DNA of 64,000 bases from positions 1,123 to 65,122 of the forward strand of contig DAIDAM010000002.1 in the NCBI GenBank assembly GCA_027310625.1, given 5' to 3'. Shown piece by piece: positions 11,211 through 62,667 of this stretch. Source of the stretch: a bacterium. GTDB taxonomy: Bacteria; Patescibacteriota; Minisyncoccia; UBA6257; 2-01-FULL-56-20. Below the pieces are notes generated by a model. It was not told the DNA's origin. It did not search any database and saw nothing but the letters and a program-made list of their open reading frames with translations. Every line of letters starts with the position of its first letter. The first letter of the stretch is position 1. The translations under genes were made by a program, and so were the position numbers.

Positions 11211-11231
11211 TTTGATCTTCGATGGTGAAGT

Positions 11232-11270: not shown

Positions 11271-11294
11271 TGTTCTGCTGTCGGCCGCCGCGAG

Positions 11295-12105: not shown

Positions 12106-12134
12106 TTGCTCTTCTTAAATTTTTCGTTTATAAT
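12106..12134 (+). promoter_or_regulatory. sigma70-like promoter for rpsO (TTGCTC -35, 17-nt spacer, TATAAT -10)
   Basis: TATAAT at 12129-12134 and TTGCTC at 12106-12111. The -10 box ends 6 nt before the rpsO GTG. Confidence 0.35.
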
Positions 12135-12140
12135 CATGCG

Positions 12141-13376: not shown

Positions 13377-13487
13377 AAATCAGCATTAATCAGCCGCTAT
13401 CCGCATAAATCAGCGTCAAAAGTATTATTTCAGCCCTGAACGCTGATAGATGCTGATTTAGCCGATTGATGCTGATACGATGAATCA
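13377..13487. repeat. ATCAGC/GCTGAT-motif repeat cluster in the pnp 5' region
   Basis: Sequence aaatcagcattaatcagccgctatccgcataaatcagcg...gctgatagatgctgatttagccgattgatgctgatacg. The same motif grammar recurs at 27650-27770 and 40941-41023. Confidence 0.6.
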
Positions 13488-21041: not shown

Positions 21042-21281
21042 TGGATCCGGAGGGCGAGGAAAGGCACAAAGGTTTAAAACAAACAACCGCCGAGGTTCAG
21101 GGATTTGTGCTCCGTCTGAGATCATCCCCGCGATGATGAGTACGTCGGTGCGAGGGAAGAGAAAAAACTCCCGAACCATTAATGAGAATTCCCTTTTCAG
21201 GAAACCTCTACCCGCCACGTGGGTAACGAGTTTTTTTCTCGCCTGATGACGAGAGAATGCCTGTCCTGCTCTCCGGATCCA
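21042..21281. repeat. inverted-repeat-bounded structured element, an RT-less paralogue of the element upstream of the reverse transcriptase
   Basis: An 11-nt perfect inverted repeat TGGATCCGGAG (21042-21052) / CTCCGGATCCA (21271-21281). Its 52-nt core at 21184-21235 is 50/52 identical to 22496-22547. Confidence 0.5.
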
Positions 21282-21415: not shown

Positions 21416-22354
21416 TCAGGTCGCACCCGACGTTCCCGATCGTTTCGCAATCGCCTGGCATTCCCTGAACCGGCGGACGAGCTTAAGTTCCGTCGTGTTC
21501 ATGGCTCCAAGACGACGTGCGTCATGGGTGGAATCGCGGAAAACACCCATCATCCCTGCGAGCTTTCGGTACAGGTCAACGTTTCGCTTGAAGACGATGC
21601 GCGCGAGGCCGCGGATTTTTCTTAGGTAGAACCGCGGCAGCATCATGCGTGCCGGAGAATTCACGCCGCGCCACTCGAGGCGGACGCCATTCATCGTAAT
21701 CGGCCCTTTCTTCAGGTCGGCCACCGTTGACTTCCGGTTATTGACCTGAAATCCGGCTTCTTTCATCGCTTCTCTTATAGCCGCGCGCTTCCTCCAGCCA
21801 ATCGGTTGCTTCGCCGAGAACGACAGGTCGTCTAGGTAGCGGGTATAGATAAGATGATGTTTTTCGGAGAGCTCCATCATCTTCCCGTCCATCAGTACCG
21901 CGGCGTAGACGTTGAAAAGGTCGGGGGACGCAGGAGCGCCGATGACCAACCCGCCCTTTTGCGAAAGGCAGTACTTCGCGAGGAACTCCGCAGTTTCTTC
22001 TTCTTCGCCGAAGAGTTCCGGGTTTGCCGCCGAGAGGATTTCGGTAAGTTTCCTGCCGTCAACCGATTGGTAGGCGTTCATGATATCGGTGAGATAGAAA
22101 TACCTGTTCTTCAGATGTTGTCGGACGCTTTCTCTCACCGATTTCCCCGGTTGCGCGCCGAAAGCGTAATCCATTCTTATTTTCAGCTTCCGTAATTCAC
22201 AAATCAGGCGCGCGTGAAGAATACGCATCGGCTCATTCGGGTCGCCTATTGTTCTTATTTTTTTCGTGCCGCCGAGCGGATTCTTATCGACATACCGGAA
22301 AGTTCGGAATTCCGGTTTTCCTTCAATTCCTTCAGTCAACTTGTTAAGGTACAT
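21416..22354 (-). CDS. reverse transcriptase, retron-type
   Basis: RT motifs DIMNAYQSV (motif 1), GGLVIGAPASPDLFNVY (motif 4, GAPxSP) and YTRYLDDLSFS (catalytic YxDD in the retron-style RYxDDLxFS context). The ATG at 22354 is preceded by AAGGAGG. Length is about 312 aa with no maturase or endonuclease domains. Confidence 0.8.
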   Translation of the reverse strand: MYLNKLTEGIEGKPEFRTFRYVDKNPLGGTKKIRTIGDPNEPMRILHARLICELRKLKIRMDYAFGAQPGKSVRESVRQHLKNRYFYLTDIMNAYQSVDGRKLTEILSAANPELFGEEEETAEFLAKYCLSQKGGLVIGAPASPDLFNVYAAVLMDGKMMELSEKHHLIYTRYLDDLSFSAKQPIGWRKRAAIREAMKEAGFQVNNRKSTVADLKKGPITMNGVRLEWRGVNSPARMMLPRFYLRKIRGLARIVFKRNVDLYRKLAGMMGVFRDSTHDARRLGAMNTTELKLVRRFRECQAIAKRSGTSGAT

Positions 22355-22380
22355 CCTAACCTCCTTGTAGAAATCAGCGG

Positions 22381-22598
22381 GAGACCTAGGGACGACTTGA
22401 AGCGTAGAGCCAGACAACAACCGCTGAGGTCTGGGATTCCTGCCTCGGCCCCCGTGGCGGCACGGGTGCAGGGGAGAAAAGCCAAGACCCGTATTGAGAG
22501 TTCCCTTTTCAGGAAACCTCTACCCGCCACGTGGGTGACGAGTTTTTGCTACCCTCATTGGTAGAGCCAAGCGCGCTTCTCGCCGTTCCCTAGGTCTC
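22381..22598 (-). ncRNA. candidate retron msr/msd non-coding RNA: a 12-nt perfect inverted repeat bracketing ~195 nt immediately upstream of the RT
   Basis: GGAGACCTAGGGA at 22380-22392 and TCCCTAGGTCTC at 22587-22598. The RT-proximal copy lies 27 nt upstream of the RT ATG. The internal sequence is GC-rich with several hairpins (CCCGUG-CCGC-CACGGG; CUCUACC...GGGUAGAG). Confidence 0.4.
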
Positions 22599-24124: not shown

Positions 24125-24261
24125 TATGCCCCGTAAGAAACAGCGAGAAAATATAAATATTTTTGAGCTAATGTTACGGGCAACGGCACAAAAGTTGCTT
24201 CAGATAGCTGAAAAGTCGAACCAATGTTCACAAAAAATATTTAATTTCTTACGGGGATGCC
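24125..24261 (+). mobile_element. hairpin-ended element of the CCCCGTAAGAAA / TTTCTTACGGGG family (empty copy)
   Basis: Left end TATGCCCCGTAAGAAA (24125-24140) and right end TTTCTTACGGGGATGCC (24245-24261). Roughly the first 45 nt and last 25 nt match the copy at 32631-32772. The right end supplies the ATG of the downstream gene. Confidence 0.45.
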
Positions 24262-24751
24262 CGAATTTTTCAACAGCTCATTGGGACTTAAAATGACCGT
24301 CCGCCAGGTGGCGGACGAAATTGTCCGCTTTATGAAAGCGGAGCCGAAGCGGAAATATAAAATCATGGTCGGCACGGATTCCGAGCGCCTGATGGACGGA
24401 CGCGCCGATTTTGTGACGGCGGCGGTTGTCCACCGCGTCGGCAACGGCGGACGCTATTTTTGGCGGCGCGCGCAGCTCGGAAAATTTCATACCCTCCGCG
24501 ACCGCATCATCCGCGAGGTCTTGATTTCCATTGACCTCGGCAAGGGAATACTTACCGAATTGAGGAATCTTTCCGATAAATCCGGCGCGATGCCCGAGTG
24601 GGATTTTGAAATTCACGCCGACGTCGGCGAAAACGGCCCCACGAAAGCGATGATTCAGGAAGTCGTCGGCATGATTCGCGCGCACGATTTCGAACCGATT
24701 ACGAAGCCGGCGAGCTACGCGGCGTCCAACGTCGCCGACCGCCACGTGTAG
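24257..24751 (+). CDS. YkuK/DUF458-like protein (RNase H-like fold)
   Basis: 164 aa with YKIMVGTDSE, which resembles the DUF458 core as I remember it. I did not run a search. Confidence 0.45.
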   Translation: MPEFFNSSLGLKMTVRQVADEIVRFMKAEPKRKYKIMVGTDSERLMDGRADFVTAAVVHRVGNGGRYFWRRAQLGKFHTLRDRIIREVLISIDLGKGILTELRNLSDKSGAMPEWDFEIHADVGENGPTKAMIQEVVGMIRAHDFEPITKPASYAASNVADRHV

Positions 24752-24845: not shown

Positions 24846-26261
24846 ATGCAGAGAATTTACCTCGATTACGCCGCTTCCACGCCCGTTGCGCCGGAAGTGG
24901 AGCGGGCGATGCGCCCGTACTTTATAAAAGAGTTCGGCAACGCCGGCTCACTCCATTCTTTCGGACAGAAAGCGATGGCGGCGATTGACGAGTCGCGCGA
25001 AACGATTGCAAAAGCCATCGGCGCGGATTTCCGCGAAGTGATATTCACCGCCTCGGCGACCGAGAGCAATAATATTGCTCTCCGCGGAATAACGCAGACC
25101 GCACGCAGAACAACGCGGAATTTTTTCAGCGTGAGTCCGCGTACAGTCCGCGTAAGTCCGCGGCCGAGATTAATAATCTCGGCAATAGAACACGAATCCG
25201 TTCTTGAAACAGCGCGCGACCTAGCCGCCCCCTTTATCAATAAAAATGGGGCGAGCCTCGCCCCTCCAGGGCGGGAGAAAGACGGCGTGGAAGTTGTTTA
25301 TCTGCCGGTTTCCAAAGGCGGCATTGTTGATTTGAAAAAACTCAAGGAGTCACTAAACGAACGGACGATTTTGGTTTCGGTGATGTACGCCAATAACGAG
25401 ATTGGAACCATTCAACCAATCGCGGAAATTTCAGAAATAATCAGAAATTTCCGAGAGACCAGGGACCAGCGACTAGCGACAAAGGGAAAAGACTGGTCTC
25501 CGGTTTCTGGTCTCTATCCTCTCTTCCACACCGACGCCGTCCAGGCATTCCAGTTTCTTGATTGTGATGTGAAAAAACTCGGCGTCGATTTGATGACGCT
25601 TTCGGCGCACAAAATTTACGGACCGAAAGGGATCGGAGCGTTATATGTTCGAAGTTCGGCGTTCGGAGTTCGAAATGAAAAAGACAATCGAACAATTCGA
25701 ACCTCGAACCTCGAACCGATAATTACCGGCGGCGGCCAGGAATTCGGGCTTCGCTCCGGAACGGAAAACGTCCCGCTCATCGTCGGTTTCGCGAAAGCCG
25801 TTTCGCTCGCCGCTAAACTCCGCGAGAAGGAATCAAAAAGAATCGGAGACCTCCGCGATTATTTATGGAGGGAGTTGAAAAAGATTTATCCACCTGCGCA
25901 GGTTAACGGTCAATTTTCATCAACGAATAACGAATCAATTTCGAATAAACGAATTCGTGAATTCGGGACGAATTCGCTATTCGCCGATATTCTTCCGAAT
26001 TTTCTGAATGTTTACTTTCCCGACTACAAGGCGGAGGACCTGCTGACGCGGTTTGATTTGGCGGGCATTGCCGTTTCCGCCGGTTCGGCATGCGCGGCGC
26101 GTTCGACCGAGCCGTCCTATGTCATAAAAACCCTTGTTTTGGGGATGAAACAACCCAGCCGCAGTATTCGTATTACTTTAGGGAGGCCGACGAGCAAAAA
26201 AGACATTGACATAACCCTAAAATTGGCTAGAAAATTATTTGCCACCAATGCCAGGCGGTAG
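24846..26261 (+). CDS. cysteine desulfurase (IscS/NifS family) carrying several repeat-derived in-frame insertions
   Basis: N-terminal YLDYAASTPVAPEV, the PLP-lysine region SAHKIYGPKGIGALYV and the active-site loop SAGSACAARSTEPSYV. It is 471 aa against about 400 aa for typical members. The extra segments map onto repetitive DNA at 25131-25163, 25454-25513, 25646-25718 and 25921-25989. Confidence 0.8.
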   Translation: MQRIYLDYAASTPVAPEVERAMRPYFIKEFGNAGSLHSFGQKAMAAIDESRETIAKAIGADFREVIFTASATESNNIALRGITQTARRTTRNFFSVSPRTVRVSPRPRLIISAIEHESVLETARDLAAPFINKNGASLAPPGREKDGVEVVYLPVSKGGIVDLKKLKESLNERTILVSVMYANNEIGTIQPIAEISEIIRNFRETRDQRLATKGKDWSPVSGLYPLFHTDAVQAFQFLDCDVKKLGVDLMTLSAHKIYGPKGIGALYVRSSAFGVRNEKDNRTIRTSNLEPIITGGGQEFGLRSGTENVPLIVGFAKAVSLAAKLREKESKRIGDLRDYLWRELKKIYPPAQVNGQFSSTNNESISNKRIREFGTNSLFADILPNFLNVYFPDYKAEDLLTRFDLAGIAVSAGSACAARSTEPSYVIKTLVLGMKQPSRSIRITLGRPTSKKDIDITLKLARKLFATNARR

Positions 26262-27649: not shown

Positions 27650-27770
27650 GCCGTAGAATATCGGCATAAATCAGCCCGCATCGGCATTTATCAGCGTTAA
27701 AAGTTCGGCGACATAGTTCCACGCTGATTTATGCTGATTGTTGCGGATAGATGCTGATAAATAAACTAAA
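27650..27770. repeat. ATCAGC/GCTGAT-motif repeat cluster in the clpB 5' region
   Basis: Sequence cggcataaatcagcccgcatcggcatttatcagcg...gctgatttatgctgattgttgcggatagatgctgataaat. Confidence 0.6.
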
Positions 27771-32317: not shown

Positions 32318-32772
32318 TATGCCCCGTAAGAAATAGTTATGTTTTATGTCTATATTTTACAAAGTGAAAAAGACGGCAAACTATATGCAGGGTTCACATC
32401 CGACCTCAGAAAAAGATTACTAAAACATAACTCCGGCAAAGTATTTTCAACGAAGTCGCGCAGGCCACTCAAATTAATTTACTGTGAAGTATGCACCAAT
32501 GAGCAAGATGCAAAACAACGAGAAAAATATTTTAAGGCGGGGGCTGGCAAGAAATTCATCAAAAACAGACTGAGAAATTATTTTCAAGGCCATATTATGA
32601 CATCAACAAAAATATTTTAGTTTCTTACGGGGTATGCCCCGTAAGAAATGGCGAGAAAATGAAAAATATTTTTGAGCAAAGATTAAGGAATATCAAATAT
32701 GAAATCGATAACTGAATATTGTAAGGTCGGGCTGATGTCAACAAAAATATTTTAGTTTCTTACGGGGTATGC
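32318..32772 (+). mobile_element. composite hairpin-element locus: CCCCGTAAGAAA inverted repeats precisely bracketing a GIY-YIG gene, followed by an empty tandem copy
   Basis: Left half TATGCCCCGTAAGAAATAG (32318-32336). Full 12-bp-stem hairpin TTTCTTACGGGG-TATG-CCCCGTAAGAAA (32621-32648) directly after the GIY-YIG stop. Right half TTTCTTACGGGGTATGCC (32755-32772) supplies the ATG of the next gene. Confidence 0.5.
32339..32620 (+). CDS. GIY-YIG nuclease family protein (small YhbQ/URI-domain type)
   Basis: 93 aa with FYVYILQSEKDGKLYAGFTSDLRKRLLKHN, the GIY...YIG motifs with the conserved R and N. Confidence 0.8.
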   Translation: MFYVYILQSEKDGKLYAGFTSDLRKRLLKHNSGKVFSTKSRRPLKLIYCEVCTNEQDAKQREKYFKAGAGKKFIKNRLRNYFQGHIMTSTKIF

Positions 32773-33509
32773 CAAAAACCATTCAGGAGGAATTCCTTTA
32801 TAAGAAGGTTTATGAATTCAGCTACGCCACTTTGAGAATATCCTCATCGGCAAAGAACAGGGAAGTTGCCGAAATTCTCGAAGGCAGGGCATTTTCGCTG
32901 CTCAATTCCGTTTTGACTGCCGATTACAGTAAAACGAGCGACACAGTTAATTCCATAATCAGTATTTCGGGCTTGTTGGTTGACGGCGGATTTCTTCATC
33001 CTGCAAACAAAGAAATACTTCAGAGGGAATCGGAAAGCATCCATCTCGCGATAAAAGCTTTGCCGAAGAAAAAAGAAGTTCTCCAAGATCTTGGTCTCGG
33101 AAAAATATTTTCAAAATCGCCATTGCCGAAACGGCAAATTGTCGATAAACCCGTGAAGCAGGTCCAATCGGCAATGGGCAATGGCGAATCGGAAATTTCC
33201 GATAAAACCGTTGCCGATAAAATTTCCGATGGAATTTCCGATAAAAACTCTTTTAAATACGAATCGGAAAAACGGCAATCGGCAATAATCGGCAAATTGC
33301 GACAAGTTGAGAATTGCCGATTAAATGATCTACAAGCACTTTTCCCGAACATAAGCGACAGGACGCTTCGTTACGATATAGAATCGCTTATCTTAAAAGG
33401 CGTGGTTGAGAGGGTGGGAAGCAGGAGAAACAGCGTTTACCGGCTTAAAAACACTTTCGGAACGGCCATAGAACTGCCGGCTTCTTCCTCGCCGGTCCGG
33501 ACGGCGTAA
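32769..33509 (+). CDS. hypothetical protein with a C-terminal winged-helix DNA-binding-like segment
   Basis: 246 aa. The C-terminus NDLQALFPNISDRTLRYDIESLILKGVVERV resembles a DeoR/wHTH fold, and the N-terminus weakly resembles the four-helix-bundle family. Confidence 0.45.
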   Translation: MPKTIQEEFLYKKVYEFSYATLRISSSAKNREVAEILEGRAFSLLNSVLTADYSKTSDTVNSIISISGLLVDGGFLHPANKEILQRESESIHLAIKALPKKKEVLQDLGLGKIFSKSPLPKRQIVDKPVKQVQSAMGNGESEISDKTVADKISDGISDKNSFKYESEKRQSAIIGKLRQVENCRLNDLQALFPNISDRTLRYDIESLILKGVVERVGSRRNSVYRLKNTFGTAIELPASSSPVRTA

Positions 33510-37994: not shown

Positions 37995-40304
37995 ATGACC
38001 GAAAAATCATTATTCAACGCGATAAAGTTTCTCGTTTTTATAATCGTCGTCGGCGCGCCGCTTTTTTATTTTCCCTGGGGCGTTTATCCCTACACCCTTT
38101 CCAAAACTCTTTTCTTTCAGGCGGCGGTTGAAATTCTCTTTTTCCTTTGGCTCGCGCTTGTCCTCCCAAATTTTGTAAGGCAAAACTCGGGAGGACGAGC
38201 CGTTTCCAATCCGCGTTATCGTCCCAAGCCGACACCACTTTTGGTTTCGCTGGCGGTTTTTCTTTCGGTTTATTTTCTCGTCTCGCTTAACGGCATTGAT
38301 TTCTGGAAAAGTTTTTGGTCAACATACGAGCGCGGCATTGGATTTTTCGCCATGCTTCATTTCGCGGCTCTCGCCCTCGTTCTCTCCTCGCTTTATAAAG
38401 AACTTCCGTGGAGAAAAATTTTTTATTCGTCGCTCGCAACCTCGGTTATTATCGACGCCATTGCTTATGTTCAGATTTACATTCCCAATTTGCTCTTGAT
38501 TGAAAACCCCGGCTCGAGACCGGGCGCGACTTTCGGCAACCCCGGGTTCATGTCCGGATACCTCCTATTCAATATTTTTCTTTCCATTTACCTTCTCTTC
38601 TCGATTTTTCGCGAGTCCAAAGGTGTTGCGCCTCCGTTCGCAAAAATTTTTTTCATTGCTTCCGCGGGCGTGATAGACGTTGCGGCTATGTTTTTGGCTC
38701 AAACAAGAGGAGACATACTCGCTCTTGTTTTGGGCTTATTAACTCTCCTTTTCCTTTTTTGTTTCGTCCCGCCGGAAAATGCCCCCGGTTTTTTGAAGAG
38801 ACGAAGCACCTACTTATCTTTAATAATTGTTATCGTCACTTTCGCGGCAATTTTCTTTTTGACAAAAGACAATCCGTTTTGGGCGAAAGTTCCTGGACTC
38901 TCACGTTTCAGCTCCGTTTCTTTTTCGGGCGAGGGGTCGATTGCGCCGCGGTTCGCCGCCCTTCGCGCGGGATGGCAGGGATTTCTTAAAAAACCGGTTC
39001 TCGGATGGGGGCCGGAGAATTTCATGCCGATATACGACCGTAACTATGACCCGAAAGATTTAACGTCTTCGTACGAAGAAACGAGATTCGATAAGCCGCA
39101 CAATCTTTTCCTCGAATACTTGGACTCCGGCGGGATAATTCTTTTCGCGGCCTTTATTTTCCTTTTCGGAGCGGCGATTTACGAATCAATCAGACAGAAA
39201 GACAAACTTTTTCGCGCGATATTTTTGTCGGCGCTCGTTTCCTACGGCGTCAGCCAGTTTTTCTTATTTGAAACAATCGGAACGACGCTTATGCTCTATC
39301 TCTTTTTCGGCGCCGCTGACGGCGGGTTCAGAGAAAAAGACGAATCCGCATCTTTTTCGGTTGTCAAAGCCGCCGGTCAGGAAAACGCAAACGTGAACAT
39401 TTGGAGCGTGATTTTGTTTTTGGCTCTCGCCGCAATTCCGATTTACAAAATAAATTTTGAATCCCTCCGCGCTTCTTTGAACCAATACTATGCTTTCCAA
39501 TACTTTTTGCAGCAAAAGATTTTTCTCGGTCTCCGTTCCTTTGAAAAATCCGTGAGCATTTGGAGCCCCTACTCCTGGAACTTCAAACGCGATTACGCCA
39601 TCGCCGTCGCCGGACAATATTTCAATTACCCCGGAACGGTTGCCGATGAAGACGTTTTGAAAGCGGTGAAAGCGATGGAGGAAACCCGCGACGAACATCC
39701 GGCGGACGCATTCAATCATTACGCGCTCGTGAACATCTATAATGAAGTTGCCGACATAAATAAGAACGAATACACCGCGAAAGCCGAGAAGGAGGCGGAA
39801 ATTGCTCTGAAGATAAGCCCGAGAAGGCAGGAAGCTCTCTTTCTCCTCGCGAAGACGAAAACCATAAAAGGCGATTATGCCGGCGCGCTTTCAATTCTGA
39901 AAGGCGCGCTGGAAGACAATCCCAAAGTCGCCGATGCGCATTTTTACTACGGAATTGTTGCGTTCGCGACCGGCGACAAAACGACGGGCTACAACGAAGT
40001 TAAAACCGCCATTTCCATGGGGCGGGAGTGGAAAACTTTTTACGAGGCGCGCACCGCCGCGGGCTTTTTTGCCGATTCCGGACATATTGATGAGGCGCTG
40101 GAACTTTATAAAACCGCCTGGGGTATGTCGTATCAGTCCGATTTGGAAACGGAAATCAAACTGGGTGTGATCTATTTCTTCAAAGGCCAGCGCGATGTCG
40201 CTAAAACCTATCTTGAAGACGCGGTTAAAAAATTTGACGTCGCGAAAAGTCCTTCCTACGCCCAACTTGAGCCGATTTTGAAACAGCTCGGGATAAAGTT
40301 CTGA
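37995..40304 (+). CDS. O-antigen ligase/polymerase (Wzy_C)-like polytopic membrane protein with C-terminal TPR repeats
   Basis: 769 aa. About 12 transmembrane helices in the first ~450 aa, then repeated TPR-like helices (e.g. YYGIVAFATGD). Confidence 0.65.
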   Translation: MTEKSLFNAIKFLVFIIVVGAPLFYFPWGVYPYTLSKTLFFQAAVEILFFLWLALVLPNFVRQNSGGRAVSNPRYRPKPTPLLVSLAVFLSVYFLVSLNGIDFWKSFWSTYERGIGFFAMLHFAALALVLSSLYKELPWRKIFYSSLATSVIIDAIAYVQIYIPNLLLIENPGSRPGATFGNPGFMSGYLLFNIFLSIYLLFSIFRESKGVAPPFAKIFFIASAGVIDVAAMFLAQTRGDILALVLGLLTLLFLFCFVPPENAPGFLKRRSTYLSLIIVIVTFAAIFFLTKDNPFWAKVPGLSRFSSVSFSGEGSIAPRFAALRAGWQGFLKKPVLGWGPENFMPIYDRNYDPKDLTSSYEETRFDKPHNLFLEYLDSGGIILFAAFIFLFGAAIYESIRQKDKLFRAIFLSALVSYGVSQFFLFETIGTTLMLYLFFGAADGGFREKDESASFSVVKAAGQENANVNIWSVILFLALAAIPIYKINFESLRASLNQYYAFQYFLQQKIFLGLRSFEKSVSIWSPYSWNFKRDYAIAVAGQYFNYPGTVADEDVLKAVKAMEETRDEHPADAFNHYALVNIYNEVADINKNEYTAKAEKEAEIALKISPRRQEALFLLAKTKTIKGDYAGALSILKGALEDNPKVADAHFYYGIVAFATGDKTTGYNEVKTAISMGREWKTFYEARTAAGFFADSGHIDEALELYKTAWGMSYQSDLETEIKLGVIYFFKGQRDVAKTYLEDAVKKFDVAKSPSYAQLEPILKQLGIKF

Positions 40305-40940: not shown

Positions 40941-41023
40941 CGCCGATTGATGCCGATACGGCTGATTTGTGCTGATTAAAAATACATCGGCATCCATCAG
41001 CTTAAATCCGCATAAATCAGCGG
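40941..41023. repeat. ATCAGC/GCTGAT-motif repeat cluster
   Basis: Sequence gccgattgatgccgatacggctgatttgtgctgatt...catcagcttaaatccgcataaatcagcggc. Confidence 0.6.
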
Positions 41024-43354: not shown

Positions 43355-43544
43355 AATGTTGTAATTGTAAAGTGAAATTTTAGTGCGGGGCAAGCAATCT
43401 CGCATTCTACCTGCCCCGCACTGAACCTTGCTCTGGTGCGGGGTCCGTTGCCCGCCGAAGGCGGATCCGCCTCTGGCGGAAACTATGAGGGCCTAGAGAA
43501 TTTTTAACCCAAATTTCCATCGGATACAAGGACCTTCTACAACC

Positions 43545-45959: not shown

Positions 45960-46122
45960 CACATAAATTTATGAATATACCAAACAATAGAGAATTAAGT
46001 AATCGCAGCACAAACCAGCCATATTATATTAATCGTTTGATTAAATTTATGTGCTCGGTGCTCAATTTTGAATACCGCTCGGTCTGCGGTATAACTACCT
46101 TGCCCTCGCGGGCAAAATTACC
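45960..46122 (+). promoter_or_regulatory. pilus-gene leader module, copy 1 (interrupted variant)
   Basis: ACCGAGCACATAAATTTATG...AAATTTATGTGCTCGGTGCTCAATTTTG...CGCTCGGTCTGCGGTATAACTACCTTGCCCTCGCGGGCAAAATTACC then ATG. It shares its 3' ~75 nt with copies 2 and 3. Confidence 0.5.
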
Positions 46123-46695
46123 ATGCCTCTTCCTGAACAAATAGCAAATCGGACGGCGCACGGACCGATAGGAACACCGGGATGGTCAGGCCAGCTTCTG
46201 ATGTTCAGCGGCACCGTTTTTTTCATAAGCTTGGCGGTTTATCTCGGGATCGCTTACGGGTACAAACCCTATCTTGAAAGGCAGGTTGCGATTCTTGACG
46301 AGCAGATAAAAAGCTACACCAGGCAAATTACTCCCGACGAACAGGAAAAACTCATTTCCTTTTACTCGCAGGTGGCGAACCTTAACGAAATCCTCAAAAG
46401 CCGGTTTACTCCCTCGCAGATATTCGGCTGGCTTGAAAAAAACACCGGTGCGAACATTTATTACAACGGGTTCGGTTTTCTCCTTGCCGATTATCAAGTC
46501 AATCTTTCCGGCATTTCAAAAACAGTGGACGGTTTTTCAAAACAGATGGTTTTATTCCAGAATAATCCTGCCGTTGAAAGGGCGTCCATCAACAGCTTTT
46601 CGTCGGCGGGAGGAAACCTTTGGCAGTTTAACGTTTCTCTTTTCCTGAATAAAGACGCCTTGAATTCAGGAGTCACGGTTCAACAAGAACAATGA
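46123..46695 (+). CDS. PilN-like type IV pilus biogenesis protein (bitopic)
   Basis: 190 aa with one N-terminal transmembrane helix. The call relies on its position after pilM. Confidence 0.5.
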   Translation: MPLPEQIANRTAHGPIGTPGWSGQLLMFSGTVFFISLAVYLGIAYGYKPYLERQVAILDEQIKSYTRQITPDEQEKLISFYSQVANLNEILKSRFTPSQIFGWLEKNTGANIYYNGFGFLLADYQVNLSGISKTVDGFSKQMVLFQNNPAVERASINSFSSAGGNLWQFNVSLFLNKDALNSGVTVQQEQ

Positions 46696-47285: not shown

Positions 47286-47576
47286 ATGGCTATAGTCTTT
47301 GAAGAAAAGACAAACACAGGCGCAATAACGACCTTCATCGTTTGGGTGATTATTCTTGGGGTAATAGCCGCAAGCGTCTATTACGTCTTTTTCAAAGAAC
47401 CGCAGCTTGTGGAATTCACTTCTTCTGCTTCTTTCAAAAATATCCAGCAGCTTTCAAAAATCACCATCAACTCCGCGGAACTCGTTAATAATCCCCAGTT
47501 CGCGGCCCTTAAGCAGTACATCACCGTTTCGCCGCTGGAAGGCGCGGGAAAGTCAAATCCATTTTTGGGGTTCTGA
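47286..47576 (+). CDS. small bitopic protein of the pilus cluster, hypothetical
   Basis: 96 aa with one transmembrane helix. Confidence 0.35.
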   Translation: MAIVFEEKTNTGAITTFIVWVIILGVIAASVYYVFFKEPQLVEFTSSASFKNIQQLSKITINSAELVNNPQFAALKQYITVSPLEGAGKSNPFLGF

Positions 47577-47730
47577 AGGTCTTTGCCTAAATTTTGGAGC
47601 ATGAAATGCAAACAAAATTTATCGCAAACACCTTTACCGAGCACATAGGTCTATTATGTGCTCGGTGCTCAATTTTGCAGCCGCTCGGGCTGCGTTATAA
47701 AATTAACTTGCCCTCGCGGGCAAAATTGGC
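47577..47730 (+). promoter_or_regulatory. pilus-gene leader module, copy 2 (in front of pilB)
   Basis: About 150 nt near-identical to 50660-50813. Contains the hairpin GAGCACATA-GGTCTAT-TATGTGCTC, a candidate -35/-10 pair (TTGCAG, 17 nt, TAAAAT) and the hairpin TTGCCC-TCGC-GGGCAA abutting the ATG. Confidence 0.5.
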
Positions 47731-49461
47731 ATGACCACAGATCAACTTCTCGGCGAACTTCAGAAGCGGAAACTTCTCACCGAAGAGGTTTCGAACAAAA
47801 TCAGGAGGGAATCGCTTCTTTCGGGGCGCTCCGCGGAAGACATAATTTTTTCTCAGCGGCTTGTTGAAAACGAGCAAGTCGCAAAGCTCAAGAGCGAGGT
47901 TTTAAAAATACCGTATCAAAAGGTGGATGCTTCCAAACTTGACGAAAAACTTTTTGAGTTAATACCCGAGGAAACAGCAAGGACTTACGGAGCAGTTCCC
48001 ATTTCCCAGAGCGACAATCTTTTGGTTGTCGGGATGCTGAGACCCGACGACCCGAAAGCGCAGGAGGCGCTGAAGTTCATCGCTAGGCGCCGCCGTTTGA
48101 ATCTCGGAGTTTACGTGATTTCATATTCCGACTGGCAGGATGTTTTGAGAAGATATTCTCCATATAAAAGCGAAGTGGAAGCTGCTGTGCGCTCGCTTGA
48201 TATTAAGTCGGGCGGCGCCGGCGGCAGGCGACTCGTCGGACTTGAGGAAACGGCTTCAACCAAGCTGGAAGACGCGCCGATTATAAGAATAGTCGCGAAG
48301 ACCTTCAGCGAAGCCGTTCAAAAAGGCGCTTCCGACGTTCACATCGAACCGCTTGAAAATTATTTGAGAGTGAGATTCAGGATAAACGGGCAGCTTGAAG
48401 AAGAAATTGCTTTGCCGGCGGAACTTTCGCAATCAGTAGTTTCGCGCGTGAAGGTTATTTCCAATCTCAAGATAGACGAGGCAAGAGTGCCCCAGGACGG
48501 ACGTTTCCGGACGAGAGTTTTTGACAGAGAAATAGATTTCCGCGTTTCCACGTTTCCGACTCCGCTCGGCGAAAAAGTCGCCATTCGCGTTCTCGACCCC
48601 TCCACCGGGCTAAAAGATTTCGGACAACTCGGCCTTGAAGGGAAAAATCTTTCAACAATAAAAGAAGGACTTTCAAAACCGTTTGGTATGATACTTCTCA
48701 CCGGCCCTACCGGCTCCGGAAAAACAACTACCCTTTACGCGATTCTCCAAACCCTCAACAAAGAAAATATAAACATTCTTAGTTTGGAAGACCCCGTGGA
48801 GTATCTCGTTTCCGGAATAAACCAGTCGCAGGTCAGACCGGAGATAGGATACGATTTTGCTTCCGGATTGAGAGAAATGTTGCGGCAGGACCCGGACATA
48901 ATAATGGTCGGCGAGATAAGGGATAACGAAACAGCGGGGCTTGCGGTCCACGCCGCGCTCACGGGACATATAGTTCTTTCAACCTTGCATACCAATAATG
49001 CCATCGGCGTCATTCCGCGGCTGATTGACATGAAAGTTGAGCCGTTTCTTCTGCCGCCTTCACTCAACCTGATGGTTTCACAGCGCCTCGTCGGCCGCCT
49101 TTGTCAAAATTGCAGGAAGAAAGAGACGGCGCCGCAGGAAATGCAAAGAATAATCAAAAAAGCACTGAACGATTTGCCGTCCGAAATAACGTCCGCCTAC
49201 AAAGAACCGTACGAGATTTACAAAAGCGAGGGGTGTCCCAAATGTCAGGGGAAGGGAATTGTCGGCAGGATAGCGCTTTTCGAGGTTTTCAAAATGACGA
49301 ACGAGCTTCAAAAAATAATAGTTTCCAGCCCCACCGTCCAGCTCATTTCCGAGGAAGCAAAGAGACAGGGAATGATAACACTGCACCAAGACGGCATAAT
49401 AAAAGCGCTCTCCGGTCTTGTAAAAATCGAGGAGGTGATTAAGGAAACGGAAGAATCGTGA
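47731..49461 (+). CDS. pilB: type IV pilus assembly ATPase PilB (GspE family)
   Basis: 576 aa with Walker A LLTGPTGSGKTTTL, a tetracysteine motif CQNC...CPKC and a GspE N-domain. Confidence 0.9.
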   Translation: MTTDQLLGELQKRKLLTEEVSNKIRRESLLSGRSAEDIIFSQRLVENEQVAKLKSEVLKIPYQKVDASKLDEKLFELIPEETARTYGAVPISQSDNLLVVGMLRPDDPKAQEALKFIARRRRLNLGVYVISYSDWQDVLRRYSPYKSEVEAAVRSLDIKSGGAGGRRLVGLEETASTKLEDAPIIRIVAKTFSEAVQKGASDVHIEPLENYLRVRFRINGQLEEEIALPAELSQSVVSRVKVISNLKIDEARVPQDGRFRTRVFDREIDFRVSTFPTPLGEKVAIRVLDPSTGLKDFGQLGLEGKNLSTIKEGLSKPFGMILLTGPTGSGKTTTLYAILQTLNKENINILSLEDPVEYLVSGINQSQVRPEIGYDFASGLREMLRQDPDIIMVGEIRDNETAGLAVHAALTGHIVLSTLHTNNAIGVIPRLIDMKVEPFLLPPSLNLMVSQRLVGRLCQNCRKKETAPQEMQRIIKKALNDLPSEITSAYKEPYEIYKSEGCPKCQGKGIVGRIALFEVFKMTNELQKIIVSSPTVQLISEEAKRQGMITLHQDGIIKALSGLVKIEEVIKETEES

Positions 49462-49585: not shown

Positions 49586-50659
49586 ATGCCCACGCCACAG
49601 GAACAACTGAATGACCTTCTTATAACCACCGCAAAACAGAACGCTTCCGACCTTCATTTGGCCGTTGGACGGCGCCCGACCCTCCGCGTTGACGGAGTTC
49701 TCGTTCCTATTCAAAAAGAACCGCAGCTTACCCGAGAAGCAGTTGAGGGCGTAATTTCCGCGCTCATAACTCCCGAACAAAAAAAAGTTTTTCTTGAAAA
49801 AAAGCAACTGGACTTCGCTTATAGTTTTGAAGACAAGGCGAGATTCCGCGTCAACGTTTATTTCCAGCGCGGCTATATGTCGGCGTCGCTGCGCTTGATA
49901 CCCGCGAGGATAAGAACGGTAGAAGAATTGAATCTCGCGCCGATACTTCACGAGTTCCCGAAGCTTTCGCAGGGCTTCGTTCTCATTGTCGGTCCGGCGG
50001 GACACGGGAAATCGACTACGCTCGCCGCCATGCTTGATGAGGTGAACCACAACCGCACCGACCACATTGTTACAATAGAAGACCCGATTGAATACATTTT
50101 TACGCAGGACAGATGCATAGTTTCGCAGAGGGAAGTCGGGGCCGACGCCTTGAGTTTCCACTCGGCATTGAGAACTGTTTTGCGTCAGGACCCCGACGTT
50201 ATCATGATAGGAGAAATGCGCGACACAATTTCAATCGCAACAGCGATGACCGCGGCGGAAACGGGCCACCTCGTTTTTTCCACACTTCACACCAATTCCG
50301 CTTCGCAGACGATAGACAGAGTCATTGATTCCTTCCCGGCGGAACAGCAGGGACAAATTGTTTCTCAGCTTGCCTCCACGCTTGTCGGCATAATTTCCCA
50401 GCGTCTCATTCCGCGTCTTTCCGGAGGAAGAATTCCGGCGCTTGAGATAATGATAACGAACCCCGCCGTCAGGAACCTCATCCGTGAAAGGAAAATCTAT
50501 CAGATTGACCTTGTGATAGAGACGAGCTTGCAGGAAGGAATGCTGACGATGAACCGTTCTCTTGCAAACCTCGTAAAAACGAAGGAAATTTCGCTTGAAA
50601 ACGCGGAGCTCTATTCCCCGAATCCGGCGGAATTGAGGATACTGCTGGAGAGGATGTAA
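49586..50659 (+). CDS. pilT: twitching motility ATPase PilT
   Basis: 357 aa with Walker A LIVGPAGHGKSTT and the PilT-type AIRNLIRE motif. Confidence 0.9.
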   Translation: MPTPQEQLNDLLITTAKQNASDLHLAVGRRPTLRVDGVLVPIQKEPQLTREAVEGVISALITPEQKKVFLEKKQLDFAYSFEDKARFRVNVYFQRGYMSASLRLIPARIRTVEELNLAPILHEFPKLSQGFVLIVGPAGHGKSTTLAAMLDEVNHNRTDHIVTIEDPIEYIFTQDRCIVSQREVGADALSFHSALRTVLRQDPDVIMIGEMRDTISIATAMTAAETGHLVFSTLHTNSASQTIDRVIDSFPAEQQGQIVSQLASTLVGIISQRLIPRLSGGRIPALEIMITNPAVRNLIRERKIYQIDLVIETSLQEGMLTMNRSLANLVKTKEISLENAELYSPNPAELRILLERM

Positions 50660-50813
50660 ATGTCTTTGCCTAAATTTTGGAGCATGAAATGCGAACAAAA
50701 TTTATCGCAAACACCTTTACCGAGCACATAGGTCTATTATGTGCTCGGTGCTCAATTTTGCAGCCGCTCGGGCTGCGTTATAAAATTAACTTGCCCTCAC
50801 GGGCAAAATTGGC
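50660..50813 (+). promoter_or_regulatory. pilus-gene leader module, copy 3 (in front of pilC)
   Basis: Differs from copy 2 at only about 3 positions. Confidence 0.5.
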
Positions 50814-52028
50814 ATGAAGTTTAAATACCAGGCAAAAACAAGAGAAGGAGAAAACCAGGTTGGATTCGTGGAAGCGCCTTCAAGAGACGTCGCCGCGAGC
50901 ATTCTTTCGAGCCACAATCTCTTCATTCTGACGCTTAATGAGGTGGGCAAAGAAGGGTTCTTTCAAAGGTTTGAAAGTTATTTTTCAAAACGCCTTAAAA
51001 AGAGCGAACTCGTTATCTTCACAAGACAGCTTGCAATGCTTCTTGAAGCAAGGGTGCCTCTCAACACGAGTTTAAAAGCGATTCATGAGCAGTCGCAAAA
51101 TCCCATTTTGAAGGAAGCGGCGCTTGAAATAGCGGAAGATATAGACGCGGGACTTCCCTTTTCGCAGGCGATAGAGCGCCAGCCGGAAATTTTTTCCGGG
51201 TTCTTCTCAAGCATGGTGCGTTCCGCAGAGATCACCGGCAATCTTGAAAACGTGATGAACTTCCTTGCGGACTACCTTGAACGCGAGTATTCGCTTCAAA
51301 AAAGAGTGGAGTCGGCGCTGATTTATCCGGGAATGATTATAGGCCTTTTCATAGTTGTTTCATTCATTCTCGTGGCTTTCGTCATTCCCCAGATCAGTCC
51401 GATATTCAGAGACGCAGGGGTAAATCTTCCTTTTTTCGTAATGATACTTGTCGGCGTAGGTGCTTTTGTGGGCCAGTGGTGGCCCGTTGTCGCTCTCGGA
51501 TTATTTTTCCTTGCTCTTTTTGCTATAGATTACTTTCAAACGCCGGAGGGCAAAGCCCTGAAAGATGAACTTAAAATAAAACTTCCGATGCTGAAAAGCA
51601 TTTATCTCCCCCTTACAATAACGAGAATCGCCAATTCGGCGTCAATGCTTTTGAGAGGCGGCGTCCCGATTGTGCAATCGCTTGAAATAATCGGGGAAAC
51701 CGCGGACAACGTCGTTTACAAAGAAATAATGCACCAGATTGCGGAAGAAGTTCGCCAAGGTCAGCAAATTTCGGCTTCCGCATCAAAATACCCTGAATAT
51801 TTTCCCTCAACCGTCACGCAAATGATAGCGGTAGGCGAAGCCGCTGGTCAGCTTGAGCAGACATTTTCAAGAATATCCGTTTTTTACGGAAGGGAGGCCG
51901 ACTCGGTGATAAATAACATCGTTGAGCTTATCCAGCCGGTGCTTATCATCGGCGTCGGAATACTCGTCGGACTTCTTTTTTCTTCCATTCTTCTTCCGAT
52001 ATACCAGCTCATCGGGACAATACGTTAA
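50814..52028 (+). CDS. pilC: type IV pilus inner-membrane platform protein PilC (GspF family)
   Basis: 404 aa with two GspF repeats and three transmembrane segments. Confidence 0.85.
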   Translation: MKFKYQAKTREGENQVGFVEAPSRDVAASILSSHNLFILTLNEVGKEGFFQRFESYFSKRLKKSELVIFTRQLAMLLEARVPLNTSLKAIHEQSQNPILKEAALEIAEDIDAGLPFSQAIERQPEIFSGFFSSMVRSAEITGNLENVMNFLADYLEREYSLQKRVESALIYPGMIIGLFIVVSFILVAFVIPQISPIFRDAGVNLPFFVMILVGVGAFVGQWWPVVALGLFFLALFAIDYFQTPEGKALKDELKIKLPMLKSIYLPLTITRIANSASMLLRGGVPIVQSLEIIGETADNVVYKEIMHQIAEEVRQGQQISASASKYPEYFPSTVTQMIAVGEAAGQLEQTFSRISVFYGREADSVINNIVELIQPVLIIGVGILVGLLFSSILLPIYQLIGTIR

Positions 52029-55590: not shown

Positions 55591-57656
55591 AAGGCGAGGA
55601 GAAAAGAAAAATTTCTTTAAGCGCCGCAAAAGAAAGAATAGAACACCTCAAAAAGGCGATAAAAAAATACAGGTACGAAAGATTGGTTTTCAACAAAGAA
55701 ATTATTTCACCGGAAGCGGAAGATGCCCTCAAGAAAGAACTTTTCGATTTGGAGGAGAAATTTCCGGAACTTATGACATCCGATTCGCCGACCCGGCGCG
55801 TCGGCGGAAAGCCGCTCCAGCAATTCAAAAAAGTGCGCCACGAGGAGCGCATGCTCTCGTTCAACGACGCTTTTTCGGGAAAAGACGTCGAGGACTGGCT
55901 TGGAAGGGTTTCGAATTATCTCGGAAGAAAAATCGCCGGCCCGTTTTACGCCGAGCTCAAAATTGACGGCCTCGCGATAGAACTTGTCTACGAAAACGGG
56001 ATTTTTGTTGAAGGTTCAACGCGCGGCGACGGCGAAATCGGCGAAGACGTAACGCAGAATCTCAAAACCATCGAAGCGATACCGCTGTCGCTAGACATCA
56101 GACATCAGACATCAGACATCAGAATCCCCGAACGTTTGGTTGTTCGCGGCGAGATTTTCTTGAACAAAAAAGAATTCGAGGCGATAAACCGCGAGCAGAA
56201 AAAAATGGGATTGAAAACTTACGCCAATCCGCGGAATGTCGCCGCCGGCTCGGTGCGCCAGCTTGACCCGAAAATAACCGCCAGCCGAAAACTCGATTCT
56301 TTTCAGTACGATATAGTCACAAATGTCGGCCAGAAAAAGCACAGCGAGGAGCATGAAATTCTCCACAAACTCGGCTTTCACACCAATCCGAACAATAAAG
56401 TTTGCGAGACGATAAAAGACGTTTTTGAATTCCACGATTACTGGAACAGGCATCGGGAGAAACTTCCTTACGAAATAGACGGCATCGTCATAATAGTTGA
56501 CGACAACAAAACTTACGATTCCGCCGGCGTCATCGGCAAAGCGCCGCGCGCCGCCATCGCTTACAAATTCTCTCCCAAGGAAGCGACGACCGTCGTTGAA
56601 AACATAAAAGTGCAGGTGGGGAGAACCGGGGCGCTGACGCCCGTCGCCGTTATGCGTCCCGTGCAGGTCGGCGGCGTGACGATTACGCACGCCACGCTTC
56701 ACAACGCCGACGAAATAAAACGGCTCGGTCTCAAAATTGGCGACACCGTCATCGTCAGCCGCGCGGGCGACGTCATTCCGCAGATAACAAGAGTTTTGAA
56801 AGAAATGCGGACGGGAAAGGAAAAGGAATTTGAAGTGCCGTCGCATTGCCCAATCGACGGCTCGAAACTTGTTCAGGACGGAGCGATTTTAAGATGCTCG
56901 AGCAAGACCTGCGCCGCGCGCCACAGGGAATCGCTTTATCACTTCGTTTCCCGTCCCGCTTTCGATATCCGCGGGCTCGGGCCGAAAATCATCGACAGAT
57001 TTTTGGATGAAGGTTTGATTTCGGATGCCGCCGACATCTTCGAACTTAAGGAAGGCGACATCGCGGCGCTCGAAAGATTCGGTGAAAAATCGGCGGAAAA
57101 TATCGTCGGCGAAATCGAAAGCAGAAAAAAAATTTCTTTGAGCCGCTTTATTTTTTCGCTCGGAGTTTTGCATGTCGGCGAGGAGACGGCGAATGTGCTT
57201 ACGCAACATATAGCATATAGCGTATCGCATATTGCAAAACCAAATGACATTTATAAAGCATTTCGCGGTTTGTCGCTTGAAAATCTGCAGGAGATTCGCG
57301 ACATCGGGCCGAAAGTGGCGCAAAGCATTCACGATTGGTTCCGCGAACAGAGAAACATAAAACTACTCGAAAAACTCGGGAGAGTTGGAATAGTGATAAA
57401 AAGCGACCAGCGACCAGCGACCAGCGGTAAACTCAAGGGAAAAACTTTCGTGCTCACCGGCGGACTGGAATCGCTAACTCGCGACGAAGCGAAAGAAAAA
57501 ATCCGCGAGCTCGGCGGCGACGTATCGGAATCAGTCAGTAGAATGATATCTTACGTCGTCGCCGGCAGCGAACCGGGGTCGAAATACGAAAAAGCACAAA
57601 AATTAGGCATCAAGATAATTTCGGAGAGAGAATTTCTCAACATTTTGAAGGGTTGA
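55587..57656 (+). CDS. ligA: NAD-dependent DNA ligase
   Basis: 689 aa with the adenylation KxDG motif (ELKIDGLA), Zn-finger cysteines, HhH and BRCT domains. Confidence 0.95.
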   Translation: MKGEEKRKISLSAAKERIEHLKKAIKKYRYERLVFNKEIISPEAEDALKKELFDLEEKFPELMTSDSPTRRVGGKPLQQFKKVRHEERMLSFNDAFSGKDVEDWLGRVSNYLGRKIAGPFYAELKIDGLAIELVYENGIFVEGSTRGDGEIGEDVTQNLKTIEAIPLSLDIRHQTSDIRIPERLVVRGEIFLNKKEFEAINREQKKMGLKTYANPRNVAAGSVRQLDPKITASRKLDSFQYDIVTNVGQKKHSEEHEILHKLGFHTNPNNKVCETIKDVFEFHDYWNRHREKLPYEIDGIVIIVDDNKTYDSAGVIGKAPRAAIAYKFSPKEATTVVENIKVQVGRTGALTPVAVMRPVQVGGVTITHATLHNADEIKRLGLKIGDTVIVSRAGDVIPQITRVLKEMRTGKEKEFEVPSHCPIDGSKLVQDGAILRCSSKTCAARHRESLYHFVSRPAFDIRGLGPKIIDRFLDEGLISDAADIFELKEGDIAALERFGEKSAENIVGEIESRKKISLSRFIFSLGVLHVGEETANVLTQHIAYSVSHIAKPNDIYKAFRGLSLENLQEIRDIGPKVAQSIHDWFREQRNIKLLEKLGRVGIVIKSDQRPATSGKLKGKTFVLTGGLESLTRDEAKEKIRELGGDVSESVSRMISYVVAGSEPGSKYEKAQKLGIKIISEREFLNILKG

Positions 57657-61098: not shown

Positions 61099-62667
61099 TT
61101 AATATAAATCGGGCGCCGTAGCTCTCTCGTAATATTGTCCGAGTCCGAGAATTTCGTGGTCTTTCCATTGCCTGCCGATGAGTTGAAAACCGACCGGCAT
61201 CCCTTCCTTCCCGCCTGCGCCAAGGCTTTGGCGAGCAGGTTTTTCACGAACTGGAAGCGAAAGCGACGGCAAACCGGCGAGGTTCACGGGCACGGTGAAA
61301 ATATCTTCGAGATACATCGCCAGCGGGTCGCTCGTTTTTTCCCCGATTTTGAACGCCGTTCCGGGCGTAGTTGGGGCGAATATTACGTCAACGTCTCTGA
61401 AGGCGTTTTCAAAATCATTTTTTATTATGCTCCGCACTTGCTGCGCTTTTTTGTAGTAGGCGTCGTAATACCCCGACGAGAGAACGAAAGTGCCGAGGAT
61501 AATGCGGCGCTTGGCTTCCGCTCCGAATCCCCGCCCCCTCTGTCGGAAATAAATTTCCTCCAGCGCTGACATACGCGGACTTAACGCTGAATCTCGCTGA
61601 ATTTTTTCCGCGTTATTCCGTGTTCCGCCTGCGTTAGTCCGCGCGTTATGCGCAATGCGCGCATAACGAATGCCGTCAAACCGAGCAAGATTCGAGCTCA
61701 CTTCCGCCGGAACAATGATGTAGTAGCACGAAAGAGTGTATTTCGTGTGCGGCAGAGAAATTTTTTTGAATTTTACTCCCATGCTTTCAATTGTTTTCCT
61801 CGCCGTTTCGACGCATTTTTTAACTTCCTCGCTTACGCCTTCGACGAAATATTCTTCCGGGACGCCGACGACGAGATTTTTTATTTTTTCAAACTCCGGC
61901 TCGAGTATTTTTTTGTCGCTTCCGTTCGGCCCGTCGGCGCTGGTGGCATCGAGCGGGTCGCGTCCGCGGATGGCGTTGAAAATTATCGCGGCGTCCTCCG
62001 CGGTTTTTGCCAGCGGTCCGATTTGGTCCAAGCTTGACGCCATAGCTATCAAGCCGGAACGGGAAACGGCGCCGTAAGTCGGCTTGAATCCGACGACGCC
62101 GCAGAACGCCGCCGGCTCGCGTATCGAACCGCCGGTGTCGGAGCCGAGCGCGCCGAGCGCAAGATTCGCTGCAACTGCCGCCGCCGAACCGCCGGAAGAA
62201 CCGCCCGCAACCCGTTCCAAATCGTGCGGATTCCTCGTTATTTTGAAGGCGGAGTTTTCCGTTGAAGAGCCCATGGCGAATTCGTCCAGATTCGTTTTTC
62301 CGAGGAAGACCGCTTTTTCGGCTTTCAGTTTTTGAATCACGCCGGCGTCGTAGCTCGCGACGTAATTTTTGAGAATTTTCGACGCCGCGGTCGCCGGCTG
62401 GCCTTTTATTAAAATATTGTCTTTTATCGCCAGCGGAACGCCGGCAAGGAGACCGATTTCGTCGCCTTCGGCAAGCGAAACGTCAACGGCCTCCGCCTGG
62501 CGAAGCGCCTCCTCCTCATTCGCGCTCAAATAGGCGCCAATCTTTCCGTCGCGCTCCTTTATTTCGCCGAAGTACGCCTCGGCGATTTCAAGCGCGGAAA
62601 ACTCCTTTTTAAGGAGACCTTCGTGGAATTTTCCGATGGTGAGATTTTGCAAAGGTATATGAGCCAT
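61099..62667 (-). CDS. gatA: aspartyl/glutamyl-tRNA(Asn/Gln) amidotransferase subunit A
   Basis: Amidase signature GGSSGGSAAAVAA...GSDTGGSIREPAAFCGVVGFKPTYG. It is 522 aa and carries a repeat-derived insert. Confidence 0.9.
   Translation of the reverse strand: MAHIPLQNLTIGKFHEGLLKKEFSALEIAEAYFGEIKERDGKIGAYLSANEEEALRQAEAVDVSLAEGDEIGLLAGVPLAIKDNILIKGQPATAASKILKNYVASYDAGVIQKLKAEKAVFLGKTNLDEFAMGSSTENSAFKITRNPHDLERVAGGSSGGSAAAVAANLALGALGSDTGGSIREPAAFCGVVGFKPTYGAVSRSGLIAMASSLDQIGPLAKTAEDAAIIFNAIRGRDPLDATSADGPNGSDKKILEPEFEKIKNLVVGVPEEYFVEGVSEEVKKCVETARKTIESMGVKFKKISLPHTKYTLSCYYIIVPAEVSSNLARFDGIRYARIAHNARTNAGGTRNNAEKIQRDSALSPRMSALEEIYFRQRGRGFGAEAKRRIILGTFVLSSGYYDAYYKKAQQVRSIIKNDFENAFRDVDVIFAPTTPGTAFKIGEKTSDPLAMYLEDIFTVPVNLAGLPSLSLPVREKPARQSLGAGGKEGMPVGFQLIGRQWKDHEILGLGQYYERATAPDLY

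Follow-up and report, generated by a model that had tools for sequence, protein, structure and literature searches.

A palindromic repeat of about 80 nt is inserted, in frame and free of stop codons, in three housekeeping genes within 64,000 nt of a genome of the Patescibacteriota (Minisyncoccia; UBA6257; 2-01-FULL-56-20), which belong to the ultra-small bacteria of the Candidate Phyla Radiation (CPR). The stretch covers positions 1,123 to 65,122 of the forward strand of contig DAIDAM010000002.1 (assembly GCA_027310625.1); we call it the window and use its own numbering. The three host genes are gatA, gyrA and a cysteine desulfurase gene, and the three sites are copies of one palindromic repeat family with a real consensus. 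The same repeat is found in many other genes of related bacteria, including their 23S rRNA genes, and its cores are conserved at the nucleotide level in two different reading frames. In our judgement it is probably a non-autonomous repeat family of Liptonbacteria-type CPR bacteria, similar in behavior to the Rickettsia palindromic elements (RPEs) and tolerated at permissive sites.

Structure of the element and support for a single family

The element is a near-palindrome in which four CGCNGA(C) units are followed by an A/T-rich centre of 4-11 nt and by four (G)TCNGCG units, so that a total of 80 nt is made up essentially of two inverted arms of about 35 nt each. On each arm the units are spaced by 10, 11 and 10 nt (about 10.3 nt on average), i.e., the cores lie approximately one helical turn apart, and we refer to this arrangement as a ladder. 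The consensus of nine 80-nt copies taken from different genomes is CGCgGAcnnaCGCaGACnnnACGCaGActaACGCnGAAaanntTCnGCGTaAgTCaGCGTtnaGTCcGCGTnAgTCcGCG. What is kept in it are the 7-nt cores, CGCNGAC on one arm and GTCNGCG on the other, and what varies freely are the central N and the cores of the spacers, 2-3 nt long. The predicted fold follows the same division: the cores pair, while the central N is paired in only 0-20% of the copies and the middle of the spacer in 0-30%. Folding of the three window copies gave a long ladder hairpin for each (z-scores between -3.4 and -7.4), and RNAalifold assigned 23 pairs to the aligned copies, all of them essentially invariant.

A preliminary description of the window, made from its letters, had proposed that one element family occurs in the three genes, and had named similarity confined to GC-rich codon runs as the alternative. 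The strings that it quoted are all present where it placed them, and its peptides match the translations of the open reading frames (ORFs). Proper alignment and a covariance model uphold the common consensus, and the three sites share the unit sequence, the number of units (4+4), the 10-11-10 spacing and the loop. A repeat finder joined the three sites directly in repeats D4, D15 (73% over 80 nt), I1 (78% complementary over 80 nt) and I3. Full FFFF..RRRR clusters of CGCNGA and TCNGCG words were found in the window at exactly these three sites, and clusters of any kind numbered 0-1 in 20 shuffles of it. As for the single word GTCCGCG, the window holds 27 occurrences where 14.3 are expected, about 8 of the 27 lying inside the three elements. 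The covariance model, R1, was built from 15 element copies, the gyrA copy being left out of the training. It scored the desulfurase copy at 92 bits, the gatA copy at 82.9 bits and the gyrA copy at 74.5 bits (E-values from 1e-23 to ~1e-18), and thus the gyrA copy was recovered at E~1e-18 in spite of its absence from the training set.

The three host genes

The copy in gatA (61564-61643) has 4+4 units and is somewhat degenerate; it encodes ARTNAGGTRNNAEKIQRDSALSPRMSA, amino acids 342-368 of the 522 encoded by the gene (61099-62667, minus strand). The gyrA copy (1829-1917) has an 11-nt loop and provides amino acids 625-654, in the C-terminal domain of a protein of 865 amino acids (1192-3789, minus strand). 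The canonical 80-nt copy is that of the cysteine desulfurase gene (24846-26261, plus strand; 471 amino acids), located at 25083-25162 and encoding RGITQTARRTTRNFFSVSPRTVRVSPR, amino acids 80-106. The three family sites had been placed correctly in the preliminary description, except that the interval it gave for the desulfurase, 25131-25163, represents only the 3' arm. Pfam assigned the host ORFs to GatA (Amidase, E 2e-147), to GyrA (DNA_topoisoIV and six C-terminal propeller repeats) and to class-V aminotransferases of the cysteine desulfurase type.

Each of the three copies is a stop-free in-frame insertion relative to solved homologues, as had been suggested. GatA matched solved structures in two stretches that leave residues ~339-366 unmatched, and the homologue has six residues there, giving a net addition of about 24 amino acids. 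In the comparison of GyrA with PDB 8s7k, the element segment, which ends with SALSQRRSA, spans two gaps that total 21 residues, and in the comparison of the desulfurase with IscS structures the element lies within a 13-residue gap, i.e., at least 13 amino acids are added. The inserts fall at alignment gaps and at length-variable columns of the GatA, GyrA and IscS homologues. Model R1 also reported a diverged 4+4 relative, with YGCNGAT and ATCNGCR words, in an intergenic region (40941-41022; 43.9 bits, E 7.5e-10), where it adjoins a terminator-like hairpin.

Occupied and empty sites among orthologues

The nearest relatives of GatA and IscS come from Candidatus Liptonbacteria and from Patescibacteria or Paceibacterota, and the window stems from a Liptonbacteria-like CPR bacterium. 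Of 33 aligned GatA orthologues, 14 carried an insert in this place, marked by the signature ..(Y/N)A(D/E)..T(Q/R)xNAExxPRxSASSPRKSAL, and another six had it at a second position; in the nearest sequence (75% identity) an insert is missing from the first position. At the DNA level, the gatA genes of six orthologues form this ladder hairpin, with between two and four units on each arm, and the site is empty in the closest relative (L082). The IscS alignment showed at least six length-variable positions, at which hairpin-type peptides of different kinds occur by lineage and some lineages have none.

The borders of the insertions hint that short matches to host sequence may anchor the element. In the desulfurase, the first core CGCGGA coincides with the codons of the host's invariant Arg80-Gly81, and the last core CCGCG falls on Pro-Arg codons preceding the conserved IIVSAIEHES; the Pro-Arg pair is kept in the five sequenced carriers. 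In one orthologue without the element, a single case, the Arg-Gly codons are likewise CGC GGA, and in two gatA orthologues the first core corresponds to Ser-Arg codons of the host. The gatA element is abutted by a perfect 10-bp hairpin (61644-61668), of which the first arm consists of the conserved host Arg-Tyr-Ala codons and the second is an inverted copy of them that adds Ala-His-Asn. As this hairpin copies host codons, local inverted duplication also happens in gatA.

Dispersal among protein-coding and rRNA genes

The element is present at several sites of single genes in near-identical form, which indicates that its DNA is copied. In one gatA orthologue (L084) two 84-nt copies stand 456 nt apart and are identical at 80 of 84 positions; a second hairpin, nested in the arm, is part of both. 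A metagenomic contig (L094) carries four copies inside one 23S rRNA gene (9928-12369), three of which are composites of 146-155 nt that are 93-96% identical. Using Infernal we mapped two of the four to hairpin loops of the rRNA, one where a 6-nt loop has grown to 135 nt and the other at model position ~1218; both are situated at helix tips, within longer outer stems (131-nt composites). On three further contigs (L155, L157, L113) the element is likewise found in the 23S gene, or in one case beside the rRNA match, and the number of copies in related CPR bacteria ranges from one to four per 23S gene.

The host range is wide within Liptonbacteria-like CPR bacteria. Scanning public metagenomes with an 18-mer from the 3' arm yielded 71 contigs, about 40 of which showed the full ladder context, most of them in long ORFs. 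By Pfam, the hosts included class I aminoacyl-tRNA synthetases similar to IleRS and LeuRS, a Mur ligase, GatB, NusA, SecA, the CCA-adding enzyme (two orthologues with the same site) and TsaD (two copies), and in loci of relatives model R1 also detected the element in genes for LepA, DNA ligase and MurD-like proteins. A profile of the insert peptide (35 positions, 27 significant matches), which has low power against 1.8 billion proteins and served only to widen the host list, added MnmA, a pseudouridine synthase resembling RluD, IF-2, DnaG, a MurD-like ligase and another synthetase. No copy was reported by model R1 in ten loci of more distant CPR groups, e.g., Saccharibacteria, Nealsonbacteria and Nomurabacteria. 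A word-indexed search with the peptide of two insert consensi returned no candidates, and the matches of a contig scan with the GatA alignment came mostly from distant bacteria. The units can also expand by slippage, as in contig L122, where a pure tandem array of ladder units with a 21-nt period and without an inverted arm (4028-4108) repeats RESALSQ in frame in what appears by eye to be a LeuRS gene.

We discarded one group of 18-mer matches, in human gut viral contigs (L158-L169), as what they contain are 11-mers, TTAACGCTGA(Y)T, repeated three times in tandem outside coding sequence, and not the CPR element. These 11-mers of related gut phage contigs look like iterons.

Reading frames and conservation at the nucleotide level

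The suggestion that all three frames through the element are open, a property reported for in-frame palindromic elements elsewhere, did not hold, as stops occur in one to four of the six frames of every copy. Two frames are usable on one strand. The gatA and gyrA copies and nearly all metagenomic hosts read one of them (NAE...SALSxR), and the desulfurase and its orthologues read the other (TQTARR...VSPRxVRVSPR). TGA and TAA abound on the strand with the CGCTGA units, which explains why, in those coding copies that were compared for orientation, the sense strand is the A-rich one.

To estimate the constraint on the element we used five syntenic iscS orthologues, which were picked by protein orthology and not by element words. 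Their fourfold synonymous sites are 28-48% identical, i.e., saturated, and yet the 84 aligned nucleotides of the element are 74-81% identical, with 38 of 40 element words intact (counted by eye). The cores are kept likewise where they encode quite different residues, in gatA and gyrA, and in rRNA. Since the identity of the element exceeds that of saturated synonymous sites, and since the cores are kept across two frames and in rRNA, the constraint acts on the DNA or RNA and not on the peptide, and it may come from selection on the cores or from repeated re-copying.

Origin, spread and possible function

A mobile, non-autonomous repeat resembling RPEs and MITEs (miniature inverted-repeat transposable elements) would account for these observations as follows. 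Its DNA would be copied to new sites, and in gene-dense genomes it would persist at harmless positions only. For housekeeping proteins these would be variable loops at the surface, with the element in frame, free of stops and translated into a polar or basic peptide of 20-30 residues; for rRNA they would be the tips of 23S helices. A trans-acting factor, recognizing either the folded hairpin or the phased cores, would be needed for the spread, and the insertion site would be fixed with the help of short matches to host sequence.

Several observations weigh against this account. That orthologous copies are conserved at saturated divergence does not match the prediction for neutral selfish DNA, and calls for selection on the cores or continual re-copying. 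Comparison of the approximately 50 ORFs of the window with Pfam returned ordinary housekeeping and type IV pilus genes, and no transposase, recombinase or autonomous parent element was among them. In the flanks of 46 copies, all at filled sites, no target-site duplication or direct repeat was evident. The three window copies are only 70-79% alike and hence old, and nothing shows activity in this genome. Covariation gave no support for the hairpin; as the paired columns are invariant, in part owing to the choice of copies by a regular expression, it is uninformative either way. Translation of the inserts is suggested solely by the kept frame and the missing stops. AlphaFold2 gave a poor model for GatA (mean predicted local distance difference test score 61), so that the insert could not be placed on a structure and the model was not used.

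The conservation of the cores raises the alternative that the ladder palindromes are a selected device and not mere junk: eight GTCNGCG cores, one per helical turn and arranged with two-fold symmetry, would serve, as duplex DNA or as an RNA hairpin, for the binding of a CPR host factor or for processing by it. The device would be planted in essential genes and in 23S rRNA and would stay intact over the time in which synonymous sites saturate. It could possibly be a signal for recombination, for uptake or for the nucleoid, or a site at which an RNase processes the RNA, with the peptide as a tolerated by-product. The maintenance of the cores where synonymous sites are saturated, their recurrence in two reading frames and in rRNA, their spacing of about 10.3 nt, and the freedom of N and of the spacers, as in the recognition site of a protein, are all in its favor, and a type IV pilus cluster in the window supplies context only. 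However, outside the elements there is hardly any enrichment of the single word, these genes hold at least five unrelated palindrome word types side by side, the insert is missing from many orthologues and there is no candidate binding protein, and we regard such a device as rather unlikely. Selected peptide linkers, or low-complexity codon runs with no common origin, would suit the polar and basic peptides that recur at variable loops; the same DNA, though, yields unrelated peptides in its two frames and is found in rRNA, and the covariance model E-values of ~1e-17 or better, against 0-1 clusters in shuffles, make either version very improbable.

One could also envisage that the palindromes arise in place, by slippage and by inverted duplication through template switching, seeded by host sequence. 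This would fit the hairpin at 61644-61668 with its inverted copy of Arg-Tyr-Ala codons, the terminal iscS word, which equals host Arg-Gly codons present also in the empty orthologue, the variation from two to four units per arm among gatA orthologues, and the tandem 21-nt array of the same units in the apparent LeuRS gene. It leaves unexplained that unrelated genes and genomes share a consensus including spacers such as TTAAG, and that near-identical composite copies are located at distant sites. As an origin of the family we therefore consider it decidedly unlikely; local slippage and inverted duplication probably contribute to changes of length. Finally, the hairpins might be stem-loop arrays of tandem interspaced guide RNAs (TIGR), sometimes in frame in tas genes, as palindromic arrays of this type are known from Patescibacteria and may be embedded in coding sequence with the frame kept. 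We give this hardly any credence: no Nop or Tas protein is found among the window ORFs, the variable parts of the element measure 1-4 nt and not two spacers of 8-12 nt, the element has no box C/D pair, and its copies are scattered in unrelated housekeeping genes and not beside tas.

Comparison with known repeat systems

The nearest known counterpart of the element is the family of RPEs, which occur also in non-protein-coding DNA and map to protein surfaces. As tabulated in PMC3184786 after Ogata et al. (2000), RPEs are ~105-146 nt long and lie in frame inside protein genes. Both they and the CPR element are short palindromic repeats found in frame in many housekeeping genes, which they leave unbroken, and neither has a transposase of its own. 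The CPR element differs in its phylum, and we claim no sequence relationship; it differs also in its length of 80 nt, in its arms, each made of four sub-repeats of 10-11 nt that are phased with the helix and share an invariant 7-nt core, in its presence at 23S rRNA helix tips, in its conservation at the nucleotide level despite saturated divergence, and in the coexistence of several families, with up to five palindromic insert types in one gene.

Like MITEs, the element is small, non-coding and multi-copy and consists of two long inverted arms, and its sub-terminal repeated motifs resemble multi-site transposase-binding ends. Unlike them, it is mostly intragenic and in frame rather than intergenic, no target-site duplication was seen, and no parent insertion sequence with matching ends was found among the window ORFs. 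Repetitive extragenic palindromic (REP) sequences and bacterial interspersed mosaic elements (BIMEs) are 20-40 nt long, extragenic, tagged by GTAG or CGTC and associated with RAYT transposases (PMC3733652). The CPR element shares with REPs the imperfect palindrome, the dispersal and probably the action as a hairpin, but it is 80 nt long and intragenic, and no Y1 transposase (Y1_Tnp) was detected among the window ORFs. We noticed no GTAG or CGTC head on it by eye, with no dedicated search made. TIGR units have two 8-12-nt spacers flanked by box C/D and are found at tas loci (PMC12045711; bioRxiv 10.64898/2026.09.09.750476). They resemble the CPR element in being palindromic units of CPR bacteria that are able to sit in frame in a gene, and it differs from them in lacking the spacer pair, the box C/D and a tas locus. 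A DNA uptake sequence (DUS/USS) was considered and rejected; for such signals a single short word is over-represented throughout the genome, at about one per kb, which the counts of GTCCGCG given above do not show.

In papers on CPR ribosomes, insertions in rRNA genes are described as frequent, mostly at least 0.5 kb long and regarded as introns (PMC9297842, citing Brown et al., 2015), and palindromes are not mentioned. The ladder copies are likewise extra sequence inside CPR 23S rRNA genes, but they are ~130-nt hairpins at helix tips and the same repeat as in protein genes. The trait of an rRNA intervening sequence (IVS), a hairpin extending a 23S helix tip, is found in the relatives' copies on contig L094 and not in the window copies. 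In full-text searches of the literature we found no in-frame palindromic elements described for CPR bacteria; a 2026 preprint on genome-language-model mining (10.64898/2026.09.22.753630), in which the terms in-frame, hairpin and REP appear together, could describe something similar.

A structurally distinct palindrome family does in the Candidate Phyla Radiation what RPEs do in Rickettsia, and on a larger scale. To our knowledge, palindromes within protein-coding frames have been treated as a peculiarity of Rickettsia. The inserts explain many puzzling length differences and low-complexity loops in CPR proteins; they inflate the divergence of protein families and can mislead annotation, alignment and structure prediction. 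At least some of the rRNA insertions of CPR bacteria, in the 23S genes of four contigs, are the same repeat as in protein genes. How essential proteins acquire new stretches of peptide can be asked cleanly of this natural example, and the conserved, phased 7-nt cores of the element point to a sequence-specific factor that can now be searched for.

Other palindromes and repeats of the window

A general palindrome scan of the window reported 20 long imperfect palindromes, compared to one to three in shuffles. Several are built of other words (GACCAGN, CAGACAT, ATCAGCNNNN, ACGAAT and GTTCGRNG), and many of them lie in frame in genes; as their words differ, the GTCCGCG family is one of several palindrome families. 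The gatA, gyrA and desulfurase genes together hold about 12 in-frame palindromic inserts. The desulfurase gene has five, of five word types, each coinciding with a gap relative to solved IscS structures; the four beyond the ladder element are at 25225-25275, 25454-25515 (GACCAGN heptamers), 25654-25716 and 25913-25988 (ACGAAT). In gatA there is a small third insert at 61210-61239 (PARQSLGAGG), and gyrA has further in-frame palindromes at 1702-1737, 1487-1514 and ~2270-2350. One gyrA palindrome, GGCGGATCCGCC, has a 97% complementary partner at 43452-43482, and another, CCTCCCAAATTTTG, resembles a palindrome inside a gene similar to O-antigen ligases (38156-38200). CAGACAT and CTGATGA heptamers form palindromes and repeats that flank the start of gyrA (3799-3858, 4173-4238 and 56087-56127) and recall the heptamer tandem repeats of cyanobacteria. 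Two intergenic ladder palindromes (13371-13457 and 27652-27759) are made of ATCAGC/GCTGAT 10-mers in the opposite order, reverse then forward; they begin directly after stop codons and look like terminators.

Three other repeats were observed. A reverse transcriptase gene (RVT_1; 21416-22420) is flanked by a repeat of ~110 nt (21144-21255 and 22456-22566), 80% identical and ending with a T-run, which may be a non-coding RNA associated with the reverse transcriptase. We considered a classical diversity-generating retroelement pair at this locus and rejected it, as the mismatches show no specificity for adenine; nor did we find the locus to be linked to the palindromes. A 166-nt repeat (47569-47734 and 50652-50817; 96% identical), with a shorter copy at 46090-46125, contains the hairpin TTGCCCTCGCGGGCAA. 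Its copies all run up to a type IV pilus gene and stop at the ATG, and it is possibly a shared 5' regulatory leader. A motif of ~40 nt, TATGCCCCGTAAGAAA, occurs together with its inverse in intergenic regions at 24125-24164, 24222-24262, 32318-32357, 32598-32672 and 32733-32773.

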